Source of the DNA: an uncultured Gammaproteobacteria bacterium
GTDB taxonomy: Bacteria; Patescibacteriota; Patescibacteriia; UBA9934
Length of the DNA stretch: 64,000 nucleotides
Assembly: GCA_964344415.1 (NCBI GenBank)
Contig: CAYFMS010000001.1
Coordinates: forward strand, 100,214 to 164,213
Reading direction: 5' to 3'
Numbering within the stretch: the stretch's first letter is position 1; each line of letters starts with the position of its first letter. Below are positions 3,890 through 62,284 of the stretch, one piece after another. A program made the translations under genes and the position numbers. The notes beneath the pieces are model-generated. The model searched no databases, was not told where the DNA came from, and saw only the letters and a program-made list of their open reading frames with translations.

Positions 3890-5956
3890 TTATTGGCCCA
3901 GAAGTCTTTTCGCACGCTCGATCGTTACCTCCGCGTGCTCTTCAACTTCTCCCTTATCTGCATGCTCTGCAGATTGACCGCTTTCCCCCTCAACGTATTG
4001 TTCTACGCTCGGCGAAAGGTTTGACCAGACCACAAGCATGGCCAGCAATGCTGCCACATAGCCAGCAACCTGCACATCCGTTCGCTTGAGCAGCTTTCCG
4101 GAATAGTGCAGCGCAATCGACGCCGCGATCAGCACAGGGATGTACCACCAATGAAGCCATGTTCCATCGAAGAAACGTTGCACCACTGGGAAGCCCATAA
4201 CAACATGGATGCCGAAGATGAAACCCCAGAAGATAGCATTCGCACCTGCGACCCCCAGGATATTCACTTGGACCTGTTCCATATTTTTGCGCTCAGCCTT
4301 GTCCTTGTACAGTGCTGTCCAGAACCAGCCGGTAAGTTCGGCAGGAATAAGGATTGCACTGACAAGTACGAAGAAGAGAGCCGTATTGCTGCTCCATGCA
4401 TTCAGCTGGAAGTACATCGTCGACACAATCCACAGCCCCACCCACACAACAGTGTTAATGATGCCGCGAATCTTGGAACCAGGTCGCCACCGATAAAGGG
4501 GCGACACAGGTCTATCGATCGGGAACTCGAATCCGCCCAGCTTGCTGAGCTTGCCGATCAGAGATCCCTGTGTCTCGTCCCTCTTTGCCTCGGGTGCTGG
4601 TCCGCCGAGTACATTGAACAGAGGAATGACGATGATTACGAATGGCAACATGGCAAGGTTTCCCATCAACCATAGCAGCAATCCGTATTCCCAACTTTCC
4701 GCGCTCCACTCGAGCAGTGTGCCGAGTGTGTACGGGGCGGCATAGGCAAGCGTCGATGTAATCAATGACGCTCCAAGCAGTCCCGTGACGATCTGCGACG
4801 CAGCTCGTACACCCGGACGCGTTGCACGCCAACGAATCAACATCCCAACACCGAAACCAATGAAGGAAACGATCGGGATGATGGTGCTCGCAGCAACGTA
4901 GAGGTTTGGATATGGCGTTGGGAGCACCGATGTCAGTGCTCCCGTCACCACGTTGACCAGCCCCTCCGCGGCCATACCACCAAGAATACCAACCGCAAAC
5001 GCGACGATACTCAAGGCAATCGCAGCTGCATCTTCGCCGCTGGCGTCGAACCAATCATGCCATCCTTCTCGATCTTCCGGATCGGACAGCGGATCGAGTC
5101 CATCGAAGACCCATGCATATATGCGAGAAGAAATGCCGTATTTCTTCGAACGCTGCCCTGTCGCTTCACATGCATCGACGAAATCGATGAGCCTTCTGTT
5201 GTACAGGCTCATTAAGCGCTGCTTAGAGTCGTCCATGACTCTCCGCTCTTGTGCAGACAGAATGTCCTCACCTTGGCGCTGACCTTCCTCTGCCGATCCC
5301 CGTCTTCTCTCTGCATGTCGATCGCGTAATCGTCGATTCACGCCCTCGATATTGTTGAGGTCACGATGCGCACGATTGACTTCGTCTGCTGTCAGCTCCG
5401 GAAGTCGAGCAATGACTTTCGAGTTCTCTTCCATGGCGGCGGCCACATGTTGCAATGCAGCACGGCATCCACGAATCGGCAGCAAGTCCTGGTCACGAGC
5501 CGACCGCAACATGCGGCGCAGCAAGGCGAGCTCTGTATCCCGATTTGGAAGATCAGGAAGCGGCGGGTCTGGCGGGCTCCTCTCAGCATCGTCAGCCGGA
5601 TCAGAGTCATGCGAGTCCCTCGCCCTTTTGAGGTCGCGTCGGAGCCTGGATGCCCATCGTTCGCGGTCACGCTCATTCGCTTTCACGCGCCAAGCGCGCG
5701 CCACATCTTCGCTGAGCACCTCGAATGCCGAGATGATCACCGGACGGGCCCAAACAGGCACGCGAGGATGACTCCCAATGGTCTCACCAATCAGCTTCAG
5801 GGCGAAGCGATTCATGAATGTGTCCATGACCAGTCCTAAGACTTGCGTGGTCATGTCCATCACCTGCCGCTCTGACAGATCTGCTTCACCAGACGGAAGT
5901 CCAGTGAAGACCTTGTCGGTCAACCAATTGATGACTGTTTCTTTCGTTGGGTTCAT
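3890..5956 (-). CDS. hypothetical polytopic membrane protein: ~300-aa charged/coiled N-terminal cytoplasmic domain plus ~10 C-terminal TM helices; no family recognised
   Basis: 688-aa ORF with SD GGAGG 6 nt upstream. GC ~58% with G/C-ending codons, unlike the host. The N-terminus is Arg/Asp/Glu-rich (RRDLKRARDSHDSDPADDAERSPPDPP). Confidence 0.7.
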   Translation of the reverse strand: MNPTKETVINWLTDKVFTGLPSGEADLSERQVMDMTTQVLGLVMDTFMNRFALKLIGETIGSHPRVPVWARPVIISAFEVLSEDVARAWRVKANERDRERWASRLRRDLKRARDSHDSDPADDAERSPPDPPLPDLPNRDTELALLRRMLRSARDQDLLPIRGCRAALQHVAAAMEENSKVIARLPELTADEVNRAHRDLNNIEGVNRRLRDRHAERRRGSAEEGQRQGEDILSAQERRVMDDSKQRLMSLYNRRLIDFVDACEATGQRSKKYGISSRIYAWVFDGLDPLSDPEDREGWHDWFDASGEDAAAIALSIVAFAVGILGGMAAEGLVNVVTGALTSVLPTPYPNLYVAASTIIPIVSFIGFGVGMLIRWRATRPGVRAASQIVTGLLGASLITSTLAYAAPYTLGTLLEWSAESWEYGLLLWLMGNLAMLPFVIIVIPLFNVLGGPAPEAKRDETQGSLIGKLSKLGGFEFPIDRPVSPLYRWRPGSKIRGIINTVVWVGLWIVSTMYFQLNAWSSNTALFFVLVSAILIPAELTGWFWTALYKDKAERKNMEQVQVNILGVAGANAIFWGFIFGIHVVMGFPVVQRFFDGTWLHWWYIPVLIAASIALHYSGKLLKRTDVQVAGYVAALLAMLVVWSNLSPSVEQYVEGESGQSAEHADKGEVEEHAEVTIERAKRLLGQ

Positions 5957-6078
5957 GAGAACCTCCTATGAAGTTTGAAGTTTTGAAATTGTGTAGGTTC
6001 GATACCGGATTTTAACGATTTTACGCCAAATCCAGGCCACTTTTTATACCATAAAATGGGCTTTTTGTCAATCCAACC

Positions 6079-6116
6079 AATATCGGATATAAACAGGCCT
6101 ATTTTTATCCGATATT
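6079..6116. promoter_or_regulatory. 11-bp perfect inverted repeat (aatatcggata ... tatccgatatt), operator-like, in the divergent island promoter region
   Basis: Arms at 6079-6089 and 6106-6116 are exact reverse complements, separated by 16 nt. Confidence 0.4.
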
Positions 6117-6182
6117 AATCATTGATTTTATATCGAATATTTGATTTCTGGCTGGTTTTAGCCAAAAAATCAACAAAAAATA

Positions 6183-6211
6183 TTGACAAAAAGCTTAAAA
6201 AATGCTATAAA
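6183..6211 (+). promoter_or_regulatory. sigma70-type promoter (TTGACA-17-TATAAA) for the 6292-7559 operon
   Basis: TTGACA at 6183-6188, a 17-nt spacer, then TATAAA at 6206-6211 preceded by TGC. GGAGGT SD sits 7 nt before ATG 6292. Confidence 0.55.
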
Positions 6212-6291
6212 TGTTAGCCTAAGTATGCCTCTGCATGCAAAGGATTTGTTCTTTATCACCTGATTAAACCCTTACAGATTGGAGGTGCCAT

Positions 6292-6870
6292 ATGGCACGC
6301 ATGATGTTTTTCTTGATGGTCATCCTGACGAGTGCCTGCGCCAAGCAGGCAACCGTCCAGCCGATGATCGTGGAGGTCGTCAATCCCTGCCCAACGGGGT
6401 ATGAGCTGATGACCAGTTCGCGTGAGACGCGAAGCACCAACTATCGTTTCGGTAGTTGGTCAAGTGTCGGCGGCAATGGCCGCGAAACCGTCACGCGTCG
6501 CTGCGTGAAAGTTGCTCCTGTGGTGCAAACAGCACCTCAGCCTCCCGTCTTCGTCACCGCCGTGCCGTCCCATGTGGCGGCATATGAGGTGAACGTAGAA
6601 GAGTTGCAGCAGACGCAGTGGGCAATCATGGAAGAAGAGGTCGCCGTACAAAAACGTGCGCTTGAGATTTCCAAGAGCCGACGTGATGAGATTGCGCTGG
6701 CACTCGCGACGGCGAAGGATGACCTGGCTGCGGCAAGACGCCTTGGAGCGGACATACTTCGTAAAGCACGACGCGTCGCGTACCTCGAGGCGCTTCTGTC
6801 AGAGATGGCGGATGTCACGAATTCCTTGATCGATCAGATCGAGGCTGATCAGAATGGAGGTGTGAATTGA
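6292..6870 (+). CDS. hypothetical secreted protein or lipoprotein with a C-terminal coiled-coil
   Basis: Signal peptide MARMMFFLMVILTSAC followed by Cys. C-terminal heptad-like region EELQQTQWAIMEEEVAVQKRALEISKSRRDEIALALATAKDDLAAARR. GC-rich. Confidence 0.6.
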   Translation: MARMMFFLMVILTSACAKQATVQPMIVEVVNPCPTGYELMTSSRETRSTNYRFGSWSSVGGNGRETVTRRCVKVAPVVQTAPQPPVFVTAVPSHVAAYEVNVEELQQTQWAIMEEEVAVQKRALEISKSRRDEIALALATAKDDLAAARRLGADILRKARRVAYLEALLSEMADVTNSLIDQIEADQNGGVN

Positions 6871-7559
6871 TCACACTTTTCATCCTGATCGCGGCAGCTC
6901 TCGCGCAAACCGCTGGCTGGGGGCCTGGACATGATCCGCTCAGTCCACTCTCCGGATCGCATCTGACAGATGCGACACAGGAGTGGCCGGTCAATTCCTG
7001 CGTCATCGCAGGGATGCCGGAGGGACGCGGAAAACTCGTGTCCATCACCAACAGTTCAGGATCGACAGCGATTCTGACGGCGGTGAAACGGTACGAGACT
7101 CGCGAAGAGGTGGCTGACAATGTCTACCCACTCGCGGTCATGCGTCCCGGGCAGGCCATGGTCAGCGCCGCAATTCAGTGGGAAGAAGATGGCAGTCGCC
7201 GTCGATATCCACTGAAAAGTGGTGAAACCTGTTACATGCGCCTTCCTGCAGGGCGGTGGGTCATCGAGATGTGGGAAATCCCAAATCTCGACAGCACCCC
7301 ACCACCTGAGCGCATCATTGCCCGAGGCCATGCGTACATTCCGAATGGCCAAGGGGGATTGAAGCGCGTAGCGCAGCACCTTTCCTTCGACCGTACCCGT
7401 TACGGTAAGGAAGTGCGCTGGCATCAGGAAACGATTCACATCTCATCCCCTGTGGACGAGGTATGGATCGAGGCGCAGGTCATCCGGCAAATGACCAATC
7501 CTCGAGAGAGGATTCGCACGCCAGGGTTCACAATCGACCCACATGACTGGCGCAGCTAG
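6867..7559 (+). CDS. hypothetical secreted protein
   Basis: ATGA overlap with the upstream gene indicates translational coupling. Signal peptide MITLFILIAAALAQTAGWG. GC-rich. A terminator follows. Confidence 0.6.
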   Translation: MITLFILIAAALAQTAGWGPGHDPLSPLSGSHLTDATQEWPVNSCVIAGMPEGRGKLVSITNSSGSTAILTAVKRYETREEVADNVYPLAVMRPGQAMVSAAIQWEEDGSRRRYPLKSGETCYMRLPAGRWVIEMWEIPNLDSTPPPERIIARGHAYIPNGQGGLKRVAQHLSFDRTRYGKEVRWHQETIHISSPVDEVWIEAQVIRQMTNPRERIRTPGFTIDPHDWRS

Positions 7560-7652: not shown

Positions 7653-8024
7653 CTATGATTGCAATCCTGCTTCTGACAATGCGTCGAAGACGAAGTTTGA
7701 AATCGCAAGCGCCGCAAGAATCAAGATAATACCGACAATACCATTGATGAGAAGCTTCTTTGCCTTTTCAACCTTTCCTTCATCTCCCCCAGCCGTCATC
7801 CACATAAATCCAGCATAAAGTGTCAAAATGAGGAAGATAATTCCAAGTACGGAAATAAGCACGGAAATAAGATTCCCAATCAGTGTTGTTAAATCCTGTT
7901 CAGGAAGTCCACTTGCTGCTGAAACGTCACCAAGACGATCCGTTGCAGATGTTTGAGCATGCACTTGAACCGCCACAGCGAGGCTTAGCGGCACAGAAGA
8001 AAGAAGAGCGAGAGCTTTTTTCAT
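7653..8024 (-). CDS. TrbC/VirB2-family pilin-like protein (paralog 1)
   Basis: Signal peptide, then TM1...MWMTAGGDEGKVEKAKKLLINGIVGIILILAALAISNF (TM2). Topology and the AGxMxxxxGG motif resemble RP4 TrbC/VirB2. Confidence 0.6.
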   Translation of the reverse strand: MKKALALLSSVPLSLAVAVQVHAQTSATDRLGDVSAASGLPEQDLTTLIGNLISVLISVLGIIFLILTLYAGFMWMTAGGDEGKVEKAKKLLINGIVGIILILAALAISNFVFDALSEAGLQS

Positions 8025-8038
8025 AAAAAGAGATTAAT

Positions 8039-8440
8039 TTATTGTGTTGCCGTTTCCTCTACAGGTGCAGAAGATGTGGCGCTTTCAATGCTTTGTGTCA
8101 CGAAATTCGCAATCACAAGCGAAGCTGATACAAGTATAATTCCGATGATCGAATTGCGCAACATTGCCTTCGCTTTTTTGACACGGTCTTCATTCCCGCC
8201 CGCTGAAAAATAGAACATTCCACCTACGATGAGATAGCCAAGAAGGACAAGGCCGAGAATGGATAGTAGGACTTGAAGAAGCCTGCCAAGCACTTCTGCA
8301 AAAACAGGTACTTGGTTTTCACTGCCATATACAGCGCTCCCTGCCCGATCCGTTACCGAAGTATAGCTGGGCTGAGCATAGGCAGCACCGGCCGGCAAGA
8401 AAAGAAATGAGATCCCGATGATTGCTAGCAATTTCTTCAT
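8039..8440 (-). CDS. TrbC/VirB2-family pilin-like protein (paralog 2)
   Basis: Same architecture: ...FYFSAGGNEDRVKKAKAMLRNSIIGIILVSASLVIANF. Confidence 0.6.
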   Translation of the reverse strand: MKKLLAIIGISFLFLPAGAAYAQPSYTSVTDRAGSAVYGSENQVPVFAEVLGRLLQVLLSILGLVLLGYLIVGGMFYFSAGGNEDRVKKAKAMLRNSIIGIILVSASLVIANFVTQSIESATSSAPVEETATQ

Positions 8441-8441
8441 A

Positions 8442-8837
8442 TTATGGTGTTGGTGGAGCGGTGGAACTCACCCCAGAAAGCGCTTCTAATAGTAAATTGG
8501 TTATCGCAAAGGCGGCAACAATGATAATCATTCCGACCGTTGCATGTATGAGCAGCTTCTTCGCCTTTGCAACAGAGTCGAGATTCCCCTGATCCGTCAT
8601 CCACATCACACCTGCATAGACCATTTGAACAAGATACACAATTCCGACAAGCCCAAGAAGTGGTCGAATAATGTACACCCCAAGAAAAGTACCTACATCG
8701 ATATTGCGCTGCCCACTCCCATAGGAAAGTTCTGCTGTTTCAAAAAGCCCTATTTCATTTACATCAAGTTGAGCAAAGACAATAACAGGAATAAAAAACA
8801 AACTAAGCATTATGATGGGTAAAATCCATTTCCGCAT
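8442..8837 (-). CDS. TrbC/VirB2-family pilin-like protein (paralog 3)
   Basis: Start taken at internal ATG 8837 (MRKWILPII signal peptide). Motif VMWMTDQGNLDSVAKAKKLLIHATVGMIIIVAAFAITNL. Confidence 0.55.
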   Translation of the reverse strand: MRKWILPIIMLSLFFIPVIVFAQLDVNEIGLFETAELSYGSGQRNIDVGTFLGVYIIRPLLGLVGIVYLVQMVYAGVMWMTDQGNLDSVAKAKKLLIHATVGMIIIVAAFAITNLLLEALSGVSSTAPPTP

Positions 8838-8875
8838 ATCGAAAGGGCCCTTGGCCCAATCGGCATACGACAATG

Positions 8876-9313
8876 TTATTGCGTTGCTGTGAGAATGGAC
8901 CGAATCACGAATTCTGTAATTGCCCAAGCGGTAAGAATAATGGCAAGGCCAACAAGTCCAGCAATGAGCATGCGCTTTGCCTCGGCAACCTTGTCGTCAT
9001 TTCCGCCAGCGGTCATCCACTTGAATCCACCCATGAGTGTTACCACGACAGCGATAATTCCAAGGAATCCAATCACGACACGAATGAGATTTCCTGCCGT
9101 CGATTCAAGATCAGCAGAACCAAGTCCTGTAGCACTTGTAAAGTCATCACTCAAAAGATCATCAGCTGTGAGCGGACCTGAGTCGCTTCCAGTTGTTGTT
9201 GGGACGGGATCACCAAGCTGCGCCGACGCAGGTGATACAAAGAAACTAAATGCACTGAGTGCAATGAGAAGGCTCATTGCGCCATAGAGAGAGTAACGTA
9301 GGAAACTCGTCAT
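8876..9313 (-). CDS. TrbC/VirB2-family pilin-like protein (paralog 4)
   Basis: FKWMTAGGNDDKVAEAKRMLIAGLVGLAIILTAWAITEF. Confidence 0.6.
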   Translation of the reverse strand: MTSFLRYSLYGAMSLLIALSAFSFFVSPASAQLGDPVPTTTGSDSGPLTADDLLSDDFTSATGLGSADLESTAGNLIRVVIGFLGIIAVVVTLMGGFKWMTAGGNDDKVAEAKRMLIAGLVGLAIILTAWAITEFVIRSILTATQ

Positions 9314-9331
9314 AGAAAAAGAATTAAGAAA

Positions 9332-10012
9332 CTAATTAGCGGGACCTGCTTCTCCGCCGACAAGAGGATTACCTGTTGTGACGGCAGTGAAGAGCGTATT
9401 GGTAGCAACGAATGCTGCTGCGATAATGATTATACCAAGCATTGCAAAAATGAGTACTTTCTTTGCTTTTGAAATCTGTGCATCATTTCCGCCAGCTGTT
9501 AGAAACATGAGTCCACCGAAAATGAACATGATAAGAGCAATGGCGCCCGTGAGGCCAAGAATACCCTGAATGATGCGCCCAAGGATTTCGCGGGGGTCGG
9601 ATGTTCCAAGAGGATTCACAAGTCCAACGGGAGCTGCAGAAATCGACCCTACTGTTCCTGATCCAGACGTGGGCGCGGACTGGACAACCGGAGCCGACGT
9701 CGTTGCTCCACATGAACTTGGATCATTTATACATGCTGCTTCGCAATCATCCGCCTCAACATCGACACATCCCTGCACGAGATTGGAACAAGCAAAGTAA
9801 TCTGTCTGAGGATCTAAGCCATCACAAATCTGCCCTGCGCCATAGACACTTGCATCTCCCGCATCCCCACAAACAGCTTCAGCTTGATTTTCACAATAGC
9901 CCGTGAAGTCTTGAGCGGAAACGATTAATGGAATGAGCATGGAAATAGCCATGAATAAAAGTGATAAAAATGACCATTTTATTGTAAAAAATCTTTGCAT
10001 CATATTATTCAT
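9332..10012 (-). CDS. TrbC/VirB2-family pilin-like protein (paralog 5) with a Cys-rich N-terminal insertion
   Basis: LMFLTAGGNDAQISKAKKVLIFAMLGIIIIAAAFVATN. The insertion carries about 11 Cys (CENQAEAVCGDAG...CEAACINDPSSCG). Confidence 0.55.
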   Translation of the reverse strand: MNNMMQRFFTIKWSFLSLLFMAISMLIPLIVSAQDFTGYCENQAEAVCGDAGDASVYGAGQICDGLDPQTDYFACSNLVQGCVDVEADDCEAACINDPSSCGATTSAPVVQSAPTSGSGTVGSISAAPVGLVNPLGTSDPREILGRIIQGILGLTGAIALIMFIFGGLMFLTAGGNDAQISKAKKVLIFAMLGIIIIAAAFVATNTLFTAVTTGNPLVGGEAGPAN

Positions 10013-10574
10013 TTTGTGTATTTATTAAACTTCCCGCCGTGTCACCTCCAGTTGCGCGATCAATCGTTTCCTCGATGGTAGAATCTCCGCTTGGCAAGCT
10101 TCCTGTCGGTGATGTCAAAACACTAATGACAATATTCACAATGGCATAGGCGGACAATACAATCACAAGTCCAATGAATGCATCGCGCAGCGTATGAAGT
10201 CCTTTTTGAATTTTCGTTTGATTCCCTCCACTTGTGATCCAAGTTAGTCCACCAATGATAAAAACAAGCAAGAGAATACCTCCTGTTATTCCAAAGAGGA
10301 ATGTTTGAATGTTCACAGCAATTTGAAAGAGATCCTGAATGCTACATTTTCCCTTTTCATCACATTCCGTTGAGAGATTATAACGAATGAGTCCGCTTCT
10401 AATGAGCTGTGTAAAACGTGGTACCGTTACTGACTGTTCAATTTGATTCCCTGCGAGACCCGTTGTTGGTGGTGCTGTGACATCGGTTTGCGCATGGGCA
10501 TTTAAAGCGAAAAACAACAGCGAGCATAGTATGCTGACTAAAAAAATACGATATGTATAACGTATAAAACTCAT
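10005..10574 (-). CDS. TrbC/VirB2-family pilin-like protein (paralog 6, divergent)
   Basis: LTWITSGGNQTKIQKGLHTLRDAFIGLVIVLSAYAIVNI; signal peptide MSFIRYTYRIFLVSILCSLLFFALNAHA. Confidence 0.5.
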   Translation of the reverse strand: MSFIRYTYRIFLVSILCSLLFFALNAHAQTDVTAPPTTGLAGNQIEQSVTVPRFTQLIRSGLIRYNLSTECDEKGKCSIQDLFQIAVNIQTFLFGITGGILLLVFIIGGLTWITSGGNQTKIQKGLHTLRDAFIGLVIVLSAYAIVNIVISVLTSPTGSLPSGDSTIEETIDRATGGDTAGSLINTQNE

Positions 10575-10579
10575 CTGGA

Positions 10580-10860
10580 AATCATTATAGCGTAGATGGG
10601 TTGTCGGGAGTAGGGCATTGTTACGGATTTACGGATGGTGCGGATTATCGGTTGCACAGTTGACGACAAGTCTATTCGTGACTCATAAATAGACTTGTCG
10701 TCATCCCGAGCGAATGCGAGGGATCTCTCACAGTATCTGTTTATGTTTCATAAACCAAGATACCGTGTCATCCCGGACAGAGCGAAGCGGAGATCCGGGA
10801 TCCATCAGCAACCGTCATGCCGGATCTAGTCCGGCATCCCCTGTTTTTTTCTTCTTACTT
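10580..10860. repeat. copy of the dispersed modular repeat family (modules gatttacggatggt, cagttgacgacaagtct plus nested hairpin, and the gtcatccc...38-mer) with a terminal hairpin and T-run
   Basis: The 14-mer at 10626-10639 is identical to 16024-16037. The 38-mer at 10781-10818 is identical to 61738-61775. A 14-bp perfect IR, gacgacaagtctat/atagacttgtcgtc, lies at 10663-10703. Hairpin gccggatctagtccggc at 10819-10835. Confidence 0.65.
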
Positions 10861-15989: not shown

Positions 15990-16236
15990 AGCAGAGATTG
16001 TGTAGAAGTTACAGATTTACGGATGGTACGGATATACGGATTTAGGTGTGAAGGAGATAAAGGAGACTTATGAGATTGAGGAGATTCGGATCGCGAAGGA
16101 TATTGGATGAACTCGGTCGCGCAGTGAGTTAGATGAGATTTGTTTGAAGTTCGAGGACCGGAGTAAGCCGTACTGAAAGGTACGGTGTTGAGGACCAGAG
16201 AACTGAGGACAAAGATCGTTAACTCACAAGCGACTT
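15990..16236. repeat. copy of the dispersed modular intergenic repeat family
   Basis: Contains gatttacggatggt (16024-16037), gcgaaggatattggatgaa (16091-16109), ggtcgcgcagtgag (16113-16126, identical to 11088-11101) and gaggaccag motifs. C-poor on the plus strand. Confidence 0.6.
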
Positions 16237-21018: not shown

Positions 21019-21585
21019 CTAAAGCCCGAGTTCTTTTGGCGACGTATCAAGCATGGCCGCTATGCATGCGCGGTTGAACATGATCCAGCCATGGCACCAT
21101 CTCCTATACCACCTTACCTTCTTGCCCTGCATTCTGGCTCTGAGCGCAGGGCAGCCGGGGCCATAATTGTGAATCATCACCATTGTTCCCAGAAAGAGAA
21201 TGTCTTCAAATCCTCCATCATCCCGTGGGATCAACCAATCGTCTGGAATAAGGTCCGTATTCTGCAGGATGGCTTGAAGTGCATTGAAGCCAAGCACTCT
21301 CTCCGCATGCCCTTCCCTCACTTCCTTCACGAATCTTGAGAAACCAATCTCCCTGCCCGTTTCTTCATCCGGCGGCTGCGTATGCAAATGGACACGGCGT
21401 AGATCGAGTTCAAATGGCTGATGTTCGGCATGATGCAGCACTTCCCAGCCAACCACCCTTTCAGGCAGAAGCGGGGGGCCGGGGTCAACGCGAATGAACT
21501 GCCTTTCAAACCCTTCTTTCGCCCGCCCAGCAAGAACATCGTCGAGCGTTCGCCTTGAAGGGACAATCCAATTATCATTCTTCAT
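21019..21585 (-). CDS. hypothetical protein (GC-rich, ~52%)
   Basis: 188 aa from ATG 21585 with GGAGG 5 nt upstream. Composition is atypical for the host. Confidence 0.45.
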   Translation of the reverse strand: MKNDNWIVPSRRTLDDVLAGRAKEGFERQFIRVDPGPPLLPERVVGWEVLHHAEHQPFELDLRRVHLHTQPPDEETGREIGFSRFVKEVREGHAERVLGFNALQAILQNTDLIPDDWLIPRDDGGFEDILFLGTMVMIHNYGPGCPALRARMQGKKVRWYRRWCHGWIMFNRACIAAMLDTSPKELGL

Positions 21586-21649
21586 TTTTCCTCCAGCAAA
21601 GCATGGTTTGTGCAATGTAAAAGAATAAAAGAGCCCGGTCAAGGCTCTT

Positions 21650-34612: not shown

Positions 34613-34900
34613 ACGAAAGGCGTGGGACACCGTCCGTGAAGAGTGGGTTTTGGTGAAAAAAACATGTTTTCCTCAAAACTCACTCTTCATTCGGCGTCAA
34701 ACCTTGGCCTTTTAGATGACACCCCACTCTACCCTGCGTTGGTTTTGCTGCCCCCCGTTGCAGCTAACCGAGCCCACTAGAAAGGATAAAAGCATGGACC
34801 GCTAGTAAAGTGGTGAGATATGCCCCGAAACTGCGCAGTTGCAGTGTGGGTTTTCGGGACACCTCCCCCGTGTCATAAACACAGACGAGATTGTTGAAAG
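34613..34900 (-). ncRNA. candidate structured RNA or long structured 3' UTR of unknown class
   Basis: GC ~52% in an AT-rich context. A 15-bp helix (34638-34652 / 34674-34688) plus further helices. No ORF with an SD. Ends at the terminator. Weak similarity to RNase P conserved regions only. Confidence 0.3.
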
Positions 34901-35029
34901 AGCGACTTACATTAATAATTGTATTCAGTTGAACACATATTGTCAACATGTTATAAGTCCTTTAAATAAAGGGCAAAACGCCATATGTGTATAACTTTTT
35001 TATATAAATCCCGCAAAGGCCTCACAGCC

Positions 35030-41174: not shown

Positions 41175-41250
41175 TGGGGCGGCTAACGGGAATCGAACCC
41201 GTAATAGAGGTACCACAAACCCCTGTGATAACCGTTTCACCATAGCCGCC
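41175..41250 (-). tRNA. tRNA-His (GTG) with encoded G-1 and CCA
   Basis: Hand-folded: G-1 pairs with discriminator C; acceptor GCGGCTA/TAGCCGC; anticodon loop TTGTGGT; T-arm CGGGTTCGATTCCCG. Confidence 0.85.
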
Positions 41251-41251
41251 A

Positions 41252-41328
41252 TGGTACGCCCGGTAGGACTCGAACCCACAACCTAATGGTTAGAACCCAT
41301 CCGCTCTGTCCAGTTGAGCTACGGGCGC
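41252..41328 (-). tRNA. tRNA-Arg (TCT)
   Basis: Hand-folded: acceptor GCGCCCG/CGGGCGT (G1-U72 wobble), anticodon loop GTTCTAA, T-arm GTGGG-TTCGAGT-CCTAC, CCA encoded. Only 1 nt separates it from tRNA-His. Confidence 0.75.
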
Positions 41329-41477
41329 GTACTATTGGGTCTAATTGTAGCGCGATAGTAGCGCATTTTTTGTTTATTTGCAAGGTGTGATCCCAGCTAT
41401 GCATAAACACTTGACGTTTTTGGTATTTTCTGGCACTATACGCCGCGTTGTCTTGAAATATATGGATTCGTTCATGT

Positions 41478-42509
41478 ATGGAAAGGCATATCGTACCCTT
41501 TGAAGGCATTGTGCCGGAAAAGGTTTCACACTCGAGGCCTAGCGGCCTCATGGAGACATACAATATGTTTACTTCTTCGCTCATCCCCTCGTTCACGATG
41601 GATGTCAATTCGGGTAACTTCAAGGTGATCAGTGACGCTCTGCCGCAGATCGTTCCGCAGCCCGGCGCTTTGCGTCGGATCGCGTTCGACATCGACAAGG
41701 GCCGGCTCTCCCTCACCGAGCTCGAGGCTCCGAAGGCGGATGGGATGCTCGACGTGATCAACGTCGTCGAACTCGGCATCACCGACGATCAGAAGCGGGT
41801 CTTCATCGTGACGACGCAGACCGGCAACCTGATTCAGGGCGACAAGTTCGTCGACAATGCCGCCAAGCTGTCGCTGCAGAAGCTCGCGACCGGTTGCGCG
41901 GCGATGATGGATGGTGCCGACCTGAACATCGGCATCAACGTGAACACCGAAGCGATGAAGCTGATCGGTCGTCAGAGCGGAACGCGCCTCGACGCCATCG
42001 GCAACAACTGGTCGAGCTTCATGCTGACCGTCGACCTCGGCACCGGACAGATCGTCGACTTCGAGAACATGGGACACATGTCGGTGATGAAGGACTTCGT
42101 GACCGACGACTTCACCATCCTCGACGGGCTGCGCTTCCAGAAGGTGACGAACGACGAGATCCTCGCCGCCATCGACAATGGCCGCGACCTCATCGACCTG
42201 TTCGATGAGAACCGGTTCGTGAAGATCAACGACGATGTGCCGCACATGCTCATGCGCGGCATCGACGGCAAGGTCCTGACCACCGACGGTCTCGGAACCA
42301 CGGTGTTCAAGTGGGACGATGCGTCCGGCGACTTCCAGACCGGGAATGTCGACGGAATCCTGCACTCGGCGCTCGACGTCGACGGCATGATCGACAACAA
42401 CAGGTTCGTGAAGATCGAGGGCAGCCCCTACGACAACACGCTGCAGTCGATCCCGCTCGGCTTCGACGAACTGCCGGTCGACGCGAAGAACCAGTTCTCG
42501 CAGGCCTAG
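41478..42509 (+). CDS. hypothetical protein, GC-rich orphan (~58% GC) with internal repeats
   Basis: 343-aa ORF with repeated DENRFVKINDDV / DNNRFVKIEGS / DGILHSALDVDGMID motifs. No signal peptide. Many overlapping spurious ORFs on both strands are typical of high GC. Confidence 0.55.
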   Translation: MERHIVPFEGIVPEKVSHSRPSGLMETYNMFTSSLIPSFTMDVNSGNFKVISDALPQIVPQPGALRRIAFDIDKGRLSLTELEAPKADGMLDVINVVELGITDDQKRVFIVTTQTGNLIQGDKFVDNAAKLSLQKLATGCAAMMDGADLNIGINVNTEAMKLIGRQSGTRLDAIGNNWSSFMLTVDLGTGQIVDFENMGHMSVMKDFVTDDFTILDGLRFQKVTNDEILAAIDNGRDLIDLFDENRFVKINDDVPHMLMRGIDGKVLTTDGLGTTVFKWDDASGDFQTGNVDGILHSALDVDGMIDNNRFVKIEGSPYDNTLQSIPLGFDELPVDAKNQFSQA

Positions 42510-42595
42510 GTCTGCGTCCCGGAACAATGAACATCTCGTACACCTAGCGACTTCCATCGCTATGGATGAGTCAATGGTGTTCAAATGTTCCCTCT

Positions 42596-42634
42596 CTGCT
42601 CCCCCATTGCTTCGGCAGTGGCGGGAGCTTTTTT
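42596..42634 (+). terminator. Rho-independent terminator
   Basis: gctcccccattgc ... gcagtggcgggagc imperfect stem followed by T6. Confidence 0.5.
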
Positions 42635-60486: not shown

Positions 60487-61557
60487 ATGCTAAAAGTTGG
60501 AATCGTCGGACTTCCAAATGTGGGGAAGTCAACATTATTTACCGCATTAACAAAAAAGCAGGTTGACGCTGCTAATTTTCCATTTTGTACGATTGAGCCG
60601 AATGTCGGGATCGTTGAAGTTCCTGATGAGCGAATCATACAATTATCTGATATTTCCTCATCGGAAAAAACGATTCCTACGGCAATTGAGTTCGTTGATA
60701 TTGCAGGATTAGTGAAAGGTGCGCATAAAGGGGAGGGGCTTGGTAATCAATTTTTAGCGAATATTCGCGAAACAGACATGATTGCTCATGTTGTGCGTTC
60801 TTTTGAAGGTGATATTACGCATGTTGATGGAAGCGTTGATCCTGTTCGAGATGCTGAAATTATTGAACTCGAATTAATCATGGCAGACCTTGCTACGGTT
60901 GAAAAACGTTTGAATGCAATAGAGCGCCGAGCGGAATCGACGAAGGATAAAGATTTATTGATTCAAGTTTCTGGACTTCGAAAATGGCATGAGAAATTGG
61001 TTAATGGGAAATTTGTTCGTGAGGTTACCTTAACGGAAGAGGAACAAGATGCATTGAAAGATATTCATCTCATTACACAAAAACGCATGATGTACATTCT
61101 GAATGTGAGCGAGGAAGATGCGGCAGATTCAAATTGGAAGTCTCCATTTGATGACGGCCGAATTGCTATTCCAATTTCGGTAAAAATTGAGTCGGAGCTT
61201 GCAATGATGGACAAAGAAGAGGCTAAAGAGTTTATGAATGAGCTTGGCTTTCAAGAGTCAGGACTCGATTCAGTTATACGATCAGCATATAAAATGCTGG
61301 ATTTGATCACGTATTTTACTTCCGGTGAAAAAGAAACACGGGCATGGACGGTACAAGTGGGGACGAAGGCGCCTCAAGCCGCTGGTGTTATTCATACGGA
61401 TTTTGAGAAGGGATTTATCCGAGCCGAAGTTATTGCTTATGATGATTTTGTTGAGTACGGTGGTGAATCTGGCGCGCGCGAGCAGGGTAAATTACGAGTA
61501 GAAGGAAAAGATTACATGGTGCAAGATGGTGATGTAATGCATTTTCGATTCGCGTAG
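60487..61557 (+). CDS. ychF: redox-regulated ribosome-binding ATPase YchF
   Basis: [19 protein letters not shown]1 motif, a TGS domain and C-terminal YchF-type motifs. Confidence 0.9.
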
Positions 61558-61860
61558 AGGACCAGTAAGTAGTTAGTAGAAAATAGTAAGTAGGTTACCG
61601 TTACAGATGTACTGATAGTACAGATATACGGATTTATGTGCGAAGGAGATTTAGGAGATTGGAGAGATTCTAGTCGCGCAGTTGACGATAAGTCTGTTTG
61701 TGAGTCACAAACCAAGATTTATCGTCATCCCAGACGAAGCGAAGCGGAGATCCGGGATCCATCAGCAACCGTCATCCCGAGCCCTGCCTGCCGGCAGGCA
61801 GGGCATCCCTTGCAAAGGATCCTTCGACAGGTTCAGAACTTTGATCAAGTTCATAAGTGA
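61558..61860. repeat. most complete copy of the dispersed modular intergenic repeat family, ending in a 22-bp perfect palindrome
   Basis: The 18-mer at 61565-61582 equals 3656-3673. atacggattta...gcgaaggag module. Nested hairpins at 61686-61728. The 38-mer at 61738-61775 equals 10781-10818. Palindrome ccctgcctgcc/ggcaggcaggg at 61782-61803. Confidence 0.7.
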
Positions 61861-61861
61861 T

Positions 61862-61891
61862 AAAAAAAACCGCCTAGCTTTCGCTAGGCGG
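61862..61891 (-). terminator. Rho-independent terminator (minus strand)
   Basis: ccgcctagc-tttc-gctaggcgg 9-bp stem; the minus-strand T8 run corresponds to 61862-61869. Confidence 0.7.
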
Positions 61892-61978
61892 GAATTCAGC
61901 CAGAAGGCTGATGGCGATGATGACGAAGGCGGCATAGCCGACCCACATCATGATGAGATCAAGAATGAATTGCATCAT
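61874..61978 (-). CDS. small hydrophobic peptide (33-34 aa, single TM), GC-rich
   Basis: MMQFILDLIMMWVGYAAFVIIAISLLAEFPPSES. ATGA overlap with the upstream small ORF. Stop codon lies within the terminator stem. Confidence 0.45.
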   Translation of the reverse strand: MMQFILDLIMMWVGYAAFVIIAISLLAEFPPSES

Positions 61979-62145
61979 TCGATTCTCTCGCTGATTTGGA
62001 TCTCCTCCTCATACTCGAGCCATGACCCGAGAATGATGCTTGCCACTCCGATGGCACCGGCGGTCGGCCAGATGAGAATCTCCCACCAGGCCATGCTTGC
62101 GATGGTCTCGGGAAGAAGCTCACAAAAGGTATAGAAGTCGATCAT
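61975..62145 (-). CDS. small membrane protein (56 aa, single TM, acidic C-terminus), GC-rich
   Basis: MIDFYTFCELLPETIASMAWWEILIWPTAGAIGVASIILGSWLEYEEEIQISERIE. GGAGG SD 5 nt upstream; consensus promoter upstream. Confidence 0.5.
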   Translation of the reverse strand: MIDFYTFCELLPETIASMAWWEILIWPTAGAIGVASIILGSWLEYEEEIQISERIE

Positions 62146-62186
62146 GACCCCTCCTCTGTCCTGGCGGAATGCCGAAGGAACGCCTC

Positions 62187-62215
62187 TTTATAGCATAAAA
62201 CAAGGATTTTGTCAA
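62187..62215 (-). promoter_or_regulatory. consensus sigma70 promoter (TTGACA-17-TATAAA, minus strand) for the small-peptide operon
   Basis: Minus-strand TTGACA corresponds to 62210-62215 and TATAAA to 62187-62192, preceded by TGC. The same TTGACAAAA...ATGCTATAAA layout is seen at 6183-6211. Confidence 0.55.
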
Positions 62216-62284
62216 TGCAAATGCAAAAAGGCTCAATAAAAAGCCGACTTATGAATCGAACGCTTCAAAAGTTGGTAAAATGGC

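Follow-up and report, generated by a model that had tools for sequence, protein, structure and literature searches.

A candidate lineage-specific operon for two acidic, single-pass micro-proteins in an Uhrbacteria-like genome

Here, we propose that two overlapping open reading frames (ORF1, 56 amino acids (aa); ORF2, 34 aa) in a 64-kb stretch of metagenomic DNA constitute a genuine lineage-specific operon for two acidic micro-proteins, each predicted to cross the membrane once and both expressed from an independently transcribed bicistronic mRNA. On this reading, to which we give a probability somewhat above one half (about 0.55), the pair is lineage-specific cargo that was acquired by the host or took the place of an earlier coding body, and an accessory role in the envelope or membrane is likely. 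The stretch analysed, which we call the window and to whose positions all coordinates refer unless a relative is named, lies within a 768-kb metagenomic contig (ENA ERZ930061; run ERR2281801). The unit is read on its minus strand and is located between the gene for a Trm11-like methyltransferase and ychF. Among named organisms, the closest matches to that methyltransferase (UPF0020, Trm11-like) are from Candidatus Uhrbacteria and Patescibacteria, and the host is an ultra-small, Uhrbacteria-like member of the Patescibacteria.

Architecture of the unit and its predicted products

On the minus strand (62245 to 61860), a weak hairpin is followed by a promoter, a leader with a Shine-Dalgarno (SD) sequence, ORF1, ORF2 and a hairpin terminator. 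The sigma-70-type promoter (62187..62215, minus strand) can be read directly from the sequence as a TTGACA -35 element (62210-62215), a 17-nt spacer with an extended TG (62194-62195), and a TATAAA -10 element (62187-62192). The initial annotation, made from the sequence alone, called this promoter perfect. Its -35 element, spacer and extended TG bear that description out, but the -10 element agrees with TATAAT at five of six positions, the final T being missing, so that the promoter is better called near-perfect. A consensus promoter scan omitted it because the scanner requires T at the last -10 position. The 29-nt pattern TTGACA-N14-TGnTATAAW has three exact matches in the 64 kb (0.06 expected) and is the only zero-mismatch promoter class detected in the window; GC-rich orphan ORFs (ORFans) lie downstream of all three.

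The predicted 5' untranslated region (UTR) of about 35 nt (62146..62180, minus strand), whose start is placed from the position of the -10 element, carries the SD sequence GAGGAGG (62150-62156), 4 nt from the ATG of ORF1, together with an upstream UCCU able to pair with it. At the other end of the unit is an intrinsic terminator (61862..61891, minus strand), CCGCCTAGC-GAAA-GCTAGGCGG followed by eight T residues, in which a stem of 9 bp (seven of them GC pairs) is capped by a GAAA loop and the stop codon of ORF2 falls inside the 3' arm of the hairpin. Both the SD and the strong terminator had been recognised in the initial annotation. The weak terminator-like hairpin (62230..62245, minus strand; five pairs and then a T-run) stands 3' of the methyltransferase gene, just upstream of the promoter, and would insulate the unit from read-through. 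The two ORFs together are 52.6% GC against 44.6% for the window, and in 200-nt windows GC is 0.54-0.545 at the unit and 0.36-0.42 in its flanks.

ORF1 (61975..62145, minus strand) encodes MIDFYTFCELLPETIASMAWWEILIWPTAGAIGVASIILGSWLEYEEEIQISERIE, with one predicted transmembrane (TM) helix and an acidic C-terminal tail. ORF2 (61874..61978, minus strand) encodes MMQFILDLIMMWVGYAAFVIIAISLLAEFPPSES, again with one TM helix, and is 33 aa long if started at its second ATG. The stop codon of ORF1 overlaps the tandem starts of ORF2 (an ATGA overlap, AUGAUG in the mRNA), and the sizes, overlap and helices are all as first described. Each ORF has a single hydrophobic segment, with best 19-residue Kyte-Doolittle values of 1.77 (ORF1) and 2.44 (ORF2), both above the usual TM threshold. 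The AlphaFold2 model of ORF1 consists of a helix at residues 4-10 and one long helix at 13-55 (mean predicted local distance difference test score, pLDDT, of 83), and the pair shows small-xxx-small helix motifs. Their charge is one-sided: the 90 residues of the two products include 13 Asp or Glu, one Arg and no Lys, and the tails are purely acidic. The positive-inside rule is therefore not followed.

Evidence that both ORFs are coding

Both ORFs look coding. GC by codon position is.47/.42/.70 in ORF1 (Fisher p=0.002) and.49/.31/.71 in ORF2 (Fisher p=0.004), the latter in its own frame and not in that of ORF1. The reading frame changes where ORF1 gives way to ORF2, and the GC-rich third position changes with it. 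An antisense shadow ORF of 150 aa is also present in the region, and it cannot account for the periodicity, because its third positions are shared with those of ORF1 only. T is enriched at codon position 2, at.35 in ORF1 and.51 in ORF2.

To these compositional signs can be added a shuffle test, in which the 311-nt transcript was permuted 3000 times with its dinucleotide content preserved. TM-like ORFs of 30 aa or more arose in 2.0% of the shuffles, and an adjacent pair of them in none (0/3000). ORF length alone is weak evidence, since 69% of the shuffles have an ATG-initiated ORF of at least 30 aa and the 150-aa antisense ORF exists as well. ORF1, but not ORF2, is called as a gene in the public annotation. 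The central claim of the initial annotation, a two-gene operon of tiny, hydrophobic, single-helix peptides, is upheld by the intact signals, the periodicity of each ORF in its own frame, the shuffles, and an SD-ATG that is kept in the nearest relative, to which we now turn.

The methyltransferase/ychF slot in related lineages

Gene order around the unit is kept in relatives, with S6, SSB and S18 on one strand, then the methyltransferase, the slot, the convergent ychF and the gene of a TPR protein. We name the lineages by label and give the identity of their methyltransferase to that of the window. The slot is empty, with methyltransferase and ychF overlapping, in L009 (46%) and in the contigs with P0009 and P0017 (45% each). 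It holds an SLT lytic-transglycosylase gene in L010 (47%) and L134 (45%), homologous between the two (28% identity, E=4e-22), and other, unassigned ORFs in L132 (46%) and L133 (47%). In the nearest relative (L003 and L005-L008; 58%) it is occupied by a 108-aa LysM, lipoprotein-like ORF, and in the window by the two micro-ORFs and a repeat cluster.

The ends of the window unit and of the L003 LysM gene are orthologous. From upstream of the -35 element through the -10 element, leader, SD and ATG, there are 66 matches over 92-93 nt (z=14.9 against shuffles). All other pairs of strong promoters, including two look-alikes elsewhere in the window, give z of 3 or less, which rules out mere convergence on the consensus. 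The L003 terminator, CCGCACAGT-GAAA-ACTGAGCGG followed by seven T residues, is orthologous to that of the window, and two stem pairs differ between them in a compensatory manner, having changed on both sides. Since the conserved SD-ATG opens a genuine LysM protein in L003, the start of ORF1 is a used translation start. The UCCU:AGGA pairing with the SD is present in the consensus fold of the window leader (62143-62186, minus strand) and the L003 leader (2947-2990), and could sequester the SD; it shows no covariation between the two, and its folding energy is not better than that of shuffles.

Two observations on the slot genes of relatives concern their annotation. The 108-aa ORF of L003 (2988-3314, corresponding to L005 4759-5085) has a clear LysM domain (Pfam E=2e-9) and a lipoprotein-like N-terminus, and is uncalled in all four public assemblies examined. 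In L134 (3985-4029), the SLT gene is called from an internal ATG; starting instead at an upstream GTG, which has GGAG before it, would give the product the hydrophobic N-terminal segment (MKNFIFCLMIGLVYF...) that an exported transglycosylase needs.

The coding body of the window unit has no BLASTP match to that of L003, and tblastn found no remnant of LysM or SLT in the window slot. The only DNA match of the body to L003 is a 15-nt in-frame CGAGYATGAGGAGGA, which encodes the acidic run (p ~0.01). Could the unit be what is left of a decayed gene? ORF1 would then be the surviving N-terminal anchor and acidic linker of a LysM/SLT-type protein, ORF2 would be fortuitous, and neither would be functional. 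The orthology of promoter, UTR, start and terminator with those of the L003 LysM gene fits such a history, as do the in-frame 15-mer and the mutually homologous SLT genes in the slot of two further lineages. So does the fact that slot proteins start hydrophobic and continue with an acidic run (LEYEEEIQ in ORF1; EVYEHEEEN, PAEEEIV and APAEQEL in other slot proteins). Against decay stand the lack of any significant protein or DNA similarity apart from the 15-mer, the failure of tblastn to find a domain remnant, and the properties of ORF2, which has its own periodicity in GC content at third codon positions (GC3), a clean TM helix, an AUGA coupling overlap and an end placed exactly in the terminator. 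In addition, ORF1 and ORF2 exceed the L003 gene in GC3 (0.70 against 0.53). We consider decay unlikely, while giving it more credence than the other alternatives discussed below.

Homology searches and points against a translated operon

ORF1 and ORF2 are, to the extent that sequence comparison can tell, without relatives in any database searched. A word-indexed search of 5.8 billion proteins with ORF1 returned only the query, and an exhaustive HMMER search of 1.84 billion cluster representatives returned the query and a spurious 528-aa tandem-repeat protein; ORF2, padded to 44 aa, yielded no candidates in the protein search. There was no match for the ORFs in Pfam, NCBIfam, PHROGs, PADLOC or the PDB sequences, none in phages by tblastn or in plasmids by blastn, and none for ORF1 in a scan of viral contigs. 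A degenerate DNA pattern for WVGYAAF had eight chance matches in viral contigs, all within unrelated frames, and the window contains no paralogue of either ORF. Metagenome scans gave no match with methyltransferase peptide patterns and, with the promoter pattern, over 120 promoters of a generic kind; most belonged to unrelated organisms, and the syntenic genes accompanied none of them. At the RNA level, an Rfam scan of the window at gathering score found four tRNAs only, none at the locus. A permissive local Rfam scan produced only sub-threshold matches, all resting on the terminator hairpin (one scored 21.7 bits, where the gathering score is 50), and ARAGORN found no tmRNA.

Several observations weigh against a translated operon. 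Both ORFs are missing from L003, the only close relative, and ORF2 is absent from the public gene call. The near-lack of basic residues is unusual for membrane proteins. As neither ORF has a homologue, no protein-level conservation or ratio of nonsynonymous to synonymous substitution rates (dN/dS) is demonstrable, and the public copies of the locus, being all identical, offer no population variation usable for dN/dS. Lastly, the transcript fold is more stable than that of shuffles (minimum free energy z=-4.2 with the terminator and -2.3 without it).

The stability of the fold is also a point in favour of a non-coding or dual-function structured regulatory RNA of about 320 nt, in which the ORFs would be incidental. 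Such an RNA would agree with a GC-rich island that has its own strong promoter and terminator in an AT-rich genome, and with the lack of a protein homologue. It agrees poorly with the frame-specific GC3 periodicity and the two TM helices, which are not expected of a structural RNA, or with the orthologous L003 unit, which is an mRNA with the same SD-ATG. There is no Rfam family, the sub-threshold matches being driven by the terminator, and the RNA body is not conserved in L003; on these grounds we judge a structured RNA improbable. This last point also bears on the initial annotation, which had held that conservation of the nucleotide sequence only, and not of the ORFs, would speak against the peptides. 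The ORFs are indeed not conserved in L003, but neither are the nucleotides of the ORF bodies.

Composition and origin of the cargo

GC3 is 0.30-0.43 in 36 of the 41 long ORFs of the window and 0.70-0.71 in ORF1 and ORF2, for which reason these two are most likely acquired or replaced cargo. The same departure is seen in the slot genes of relatives, which exceed the core genes in GC3 in all four lineages measured: 0.70 against 0.28-0.44 in the window, 0.53 against 0.25-0.31 in L003, 0.87 against 0.48-0.61 in L010, and 0.63 against 0.45-0.49 in L134. An expression-linked codon bias can be ruled out as its source, since GC3 is only 0.28-0.38 in the genes for ribosomal proteins and EF-P from this genome. 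This composition suggests that the slot, like other GC-rich islands, holds acquired foreign cargo.

Extensive horizontal acquisition, with many acquired regions, has been described in the Patescibacteria (PMC12455944), and a GC content departing from that of the host is atypical of natively originated orphans (PMC11293555). The window pair resembles both the acquired islands of the Patescibacteria (PMC12455944) and species-specific orphans (PMC11293555) in being short, restricted to one lineage and placed in a variable syntenic slot. Gut-microbiome orphans mostly match the GC of their host, virus-like ones being GC-poorer (PMC11293555), whereas the window ORFs are markedly richer in GC3 than their host and their promoter and terminator are older than the coding body.

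Besides ORF1 and ORF2, the GC3 outliers of the window are an ORF whose intermediate value of 0.54 lies outside the host range (21019-21642, minus strand), an island at 3890-7559 with genes at 0.59-0.63, and a gene at 41565-42509 (0.89). The island is about 55% GC and has divergent promoters at 6043-6071 (minus strand) and 6183-6211 (plus strand) of the TTGACAAAA...TGnTATAAA type, each with a strong SD. One promoter would drive a polytopic membrane ORFan of 688 aa, the other a lipoprotein-like ORF of 192 aa and, behind it, a secreted-looking ORF of 230 aa. None of the three has a Pfam match; viral contigs were scanned with the 688-aa ORF alone and contained no match to it. Adjoining the island are four tandem paralogous genes (7653-10574, minus strand) with a T4SS_pilin domain (PF18895; E 1e-11 to 6e-4). 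The gene with the highest GC3 is a 314-aa ORFan (within 41410-42620) immediately beside tRNA-His and tRNA-Arg (41175-41328), with its own promoter-like site and a strong terminator. Pfam, PHROGs, phages and viral contigs contained no match to it, nor did the protein collection include an exact copy, and it has the look of a gene recently acquired at a tRNA site. A further strong promoter-like site, TTGACA-17-TACAAT (34850-34946, minus strand), precedes, by about 45 nt, a GC-rich sequence resembling a hairpin (GACACGGGGGAGGTGTCCCG).

Comparison with known systems

The initial annotation offered as candidates a type-I-toxin-like or holin-like pair, or small regulatory subunits of a membrane complex similar to CydX, KdpF or AcrZ, and none of these was borne out. 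A membrane-damaging pair of the toxin or holin kind would depolarise or permeabilise the membrane. Its appeal lies in the products, which are small, hydrophobic and single-helix, in the 5' UTR that can pair with the SD, and in the murein-binding or murein-cleaving proteins found in the slot of relatives. Like Hok, TisB, Fst and Ibs, the ORFs are hydrophobic single-helix peptides of less than about 60 aa (by the Kyte-Doolittle values and the AlphaFold2 helix) on a short, stand-alone, structured transcript. The window unit differs from these type I toxins in having two ORFs, acidic termini, a strong consensus-like promoter, no match to a toxin or RNA family and no detectable antisense RNA gene. 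A crude consensus scan for the promoter of an antisense RNA of a type I toxin-antitoxin system found no plus-strand site scoring at least 9/12 over 61400-62260, although antisense transcription by read-through from ychF is possible. The two promoter-like sites of the plus strand, at 62264 and 62316, are directed away from the ORFs.

Type I toxins and holins typically have basic termini, and a strong near-consensus promoter is unusual for a toxin gene. The presence of 13 acidic residues and only one basic residue among 90 therefore disfavours the classical toxin and holin models, and the strength of the promoter and the non-significant fold of the UTR also count against a toxin. As to holins, the tails are acidic and not of the charged, usually basic, kind; the neighbours are the methyltransferase and ychF, with no endolysin, lysis cassette or prophage, and there is no PHROG, PADLOC, phage or viral-contig match. 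We regard a membrane-damaging pair as highly improbable.

Dedicated small subunits of a specific membrane complex would suit the size and single-TM architecture of the two products. The acidic tail of ORF1 loosely recalls CydX and the ...LLAEF end of ORF2 loosely recalls KdpF, resemblances that we take to be leads only. Opposed to them are profile searches, in which neither ORF nor the fused pair matched CydX, KdpF, AcrZ or any other Pfam or NCBIfam family at E<=1 to 10, and the genomic setting. The neighbours are the tRNA methyltransferase-like gene and ychF; the 10 kb around the unit and the window genes scanned include no cydAB, kdpABC or acrB and no other cyd, kdp or RND gene, and an orphan in a variable slot is unlike conserved complex subunits. 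We give such subunits slightly less probability still than a membrane-damaging pair.

Class IIb or leaderless two-peptide bacteriocins likewise consist of two small hydrophobic peptides encoded side by side in an operon and carry small-xxx-small motifs. The window pair differs in that it has no double-glycine leader, is anionic and not cationic, has no immunity or ABC-transporter gene nearby and matches no family. A split T4SS pilin or a frameshifted two-TM gene was also considered and rejected. The fused sequence has no PF18895 match, and hhalign against the four window pilins gave a probability of 0.2%, with only an 8-residue WxTAG match.

What remains is the general class of small single-pass bacterial membrane proteins of up to 60 aa, which has been reviewed (PMC12648545) and for which a conservation study of CydX is available (PMC4325964). 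Both ORFs have the features of this class: an SD and start, a length of at most 60 aa, one predicted TM helix and a coding-type codon-position bias. Like its members, the window pair is short (34-56 aa), has one hydrophobic alpha-helix per product and its own SD and start, and is easily missed by annotation. It differs in having no family and no partner operon, in its predicted translational coupling and strongly anionic products, and in its host-foreign codon composition. The unit falls within a known kind, the small membrane proteins of bacteria, without joining any known family. It is a credible orphan, on present evidence an ordinary one, and not a known toxin, holin or enzyme subunit.

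The adjoining dispersed repeat

Between the terminator and the ychF stop codon lies a modular, hairpin-rich dispersed repeat cluster (61600..61830), which is not part of the unit. It begins about 30 nt past the terminator and aligns with both other copies, which are partial (10620-10840 and 16008-16130), in agreement with the earlier statement that the operon adjoins the most complete copy. Its modules are short hairpin units (for example, GTCATCCCGG...CCGGGATC and CCCTGCCTGCCGGCAGGCAGGG) and a GTTACAGAT/TACGGAT-rich module, and the subset of modules differs from copy to copy. Similar hairpin units are found in the same slot of a distant relative (L132 4190-4265). The L003 terminator runs straight up to the ychF stop codon, with no repeat between them, whereas the window has about 300 nt of repeat modules there; for this reason the repeat is taken to be a separate insertion. 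No small-ORF operon stands beside either of the other two copies, which rules out a repeat-borne mobile cassette, and the link of the operon to the repeat appears incidental. A 74-aa ORF of the public annotation (61636-61860, plus strand) lies wholly inside the repeat and is probably spurious.

Proposed expression, role and implications

If the unit is a lineage-specific operon, how might it be expressed, and what might its role be? Its own promoter and terminator would give a leadered bicistronic mRNA of about 320 nt. ORF1 would be translated from the SD and ORF2 by termination-reinitiation at AUGAUG, presumably with roughly equal amounts of the two peptides, and both would insert as single-span helices, probably pairing with one another in the cytoplasmic membrane. 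ORF1 and ORF2 would be horizontally acquired or replaced cargo particular to this lineage, run from an older expression unit of an envelope gene. We propose an accessory role in the envelope on a single ground, namely that the slot in relatives encodes exported murein-binding or murein-cleaving proteins (LysM and SLT).

A broader view is that the methyltransferase/ychF slot is a conserved "expression socket" of this Uhrbacteria clade, in which an old promoter, leader, SD and ATG persist together with the terminator while unrelated GC-rich envelope gene bodies are exchanged, a LysM gene in one lineage and the anionic TM pair in another. An episymbiont would then use the pair at its cell surface, as the first members of a family of acidic membrane peptides new to science. 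We find this extension doubtful, somewhat more so than the decay of a LysM/SLT-type gene and less so than a structured RNA.

The most interesting aspect of the operon that we propose is the conservation of a promoter and a terminator around a replaced, foreign coding body. If translated, the pair would add two more micro-proteins, un- or half-annotated, to a phylum whose membrane and surface proteins are thought to mediate symbiosis, and its all-acidic charge pattern is unusual. The locus also carries a caution, in that conserved gene ends do not imply a conserved gene. With its conserved promoter, leader and terminator enclosing a replaced and compositionally foreign body, it illustrates how a streamlined genome may express new cargo.

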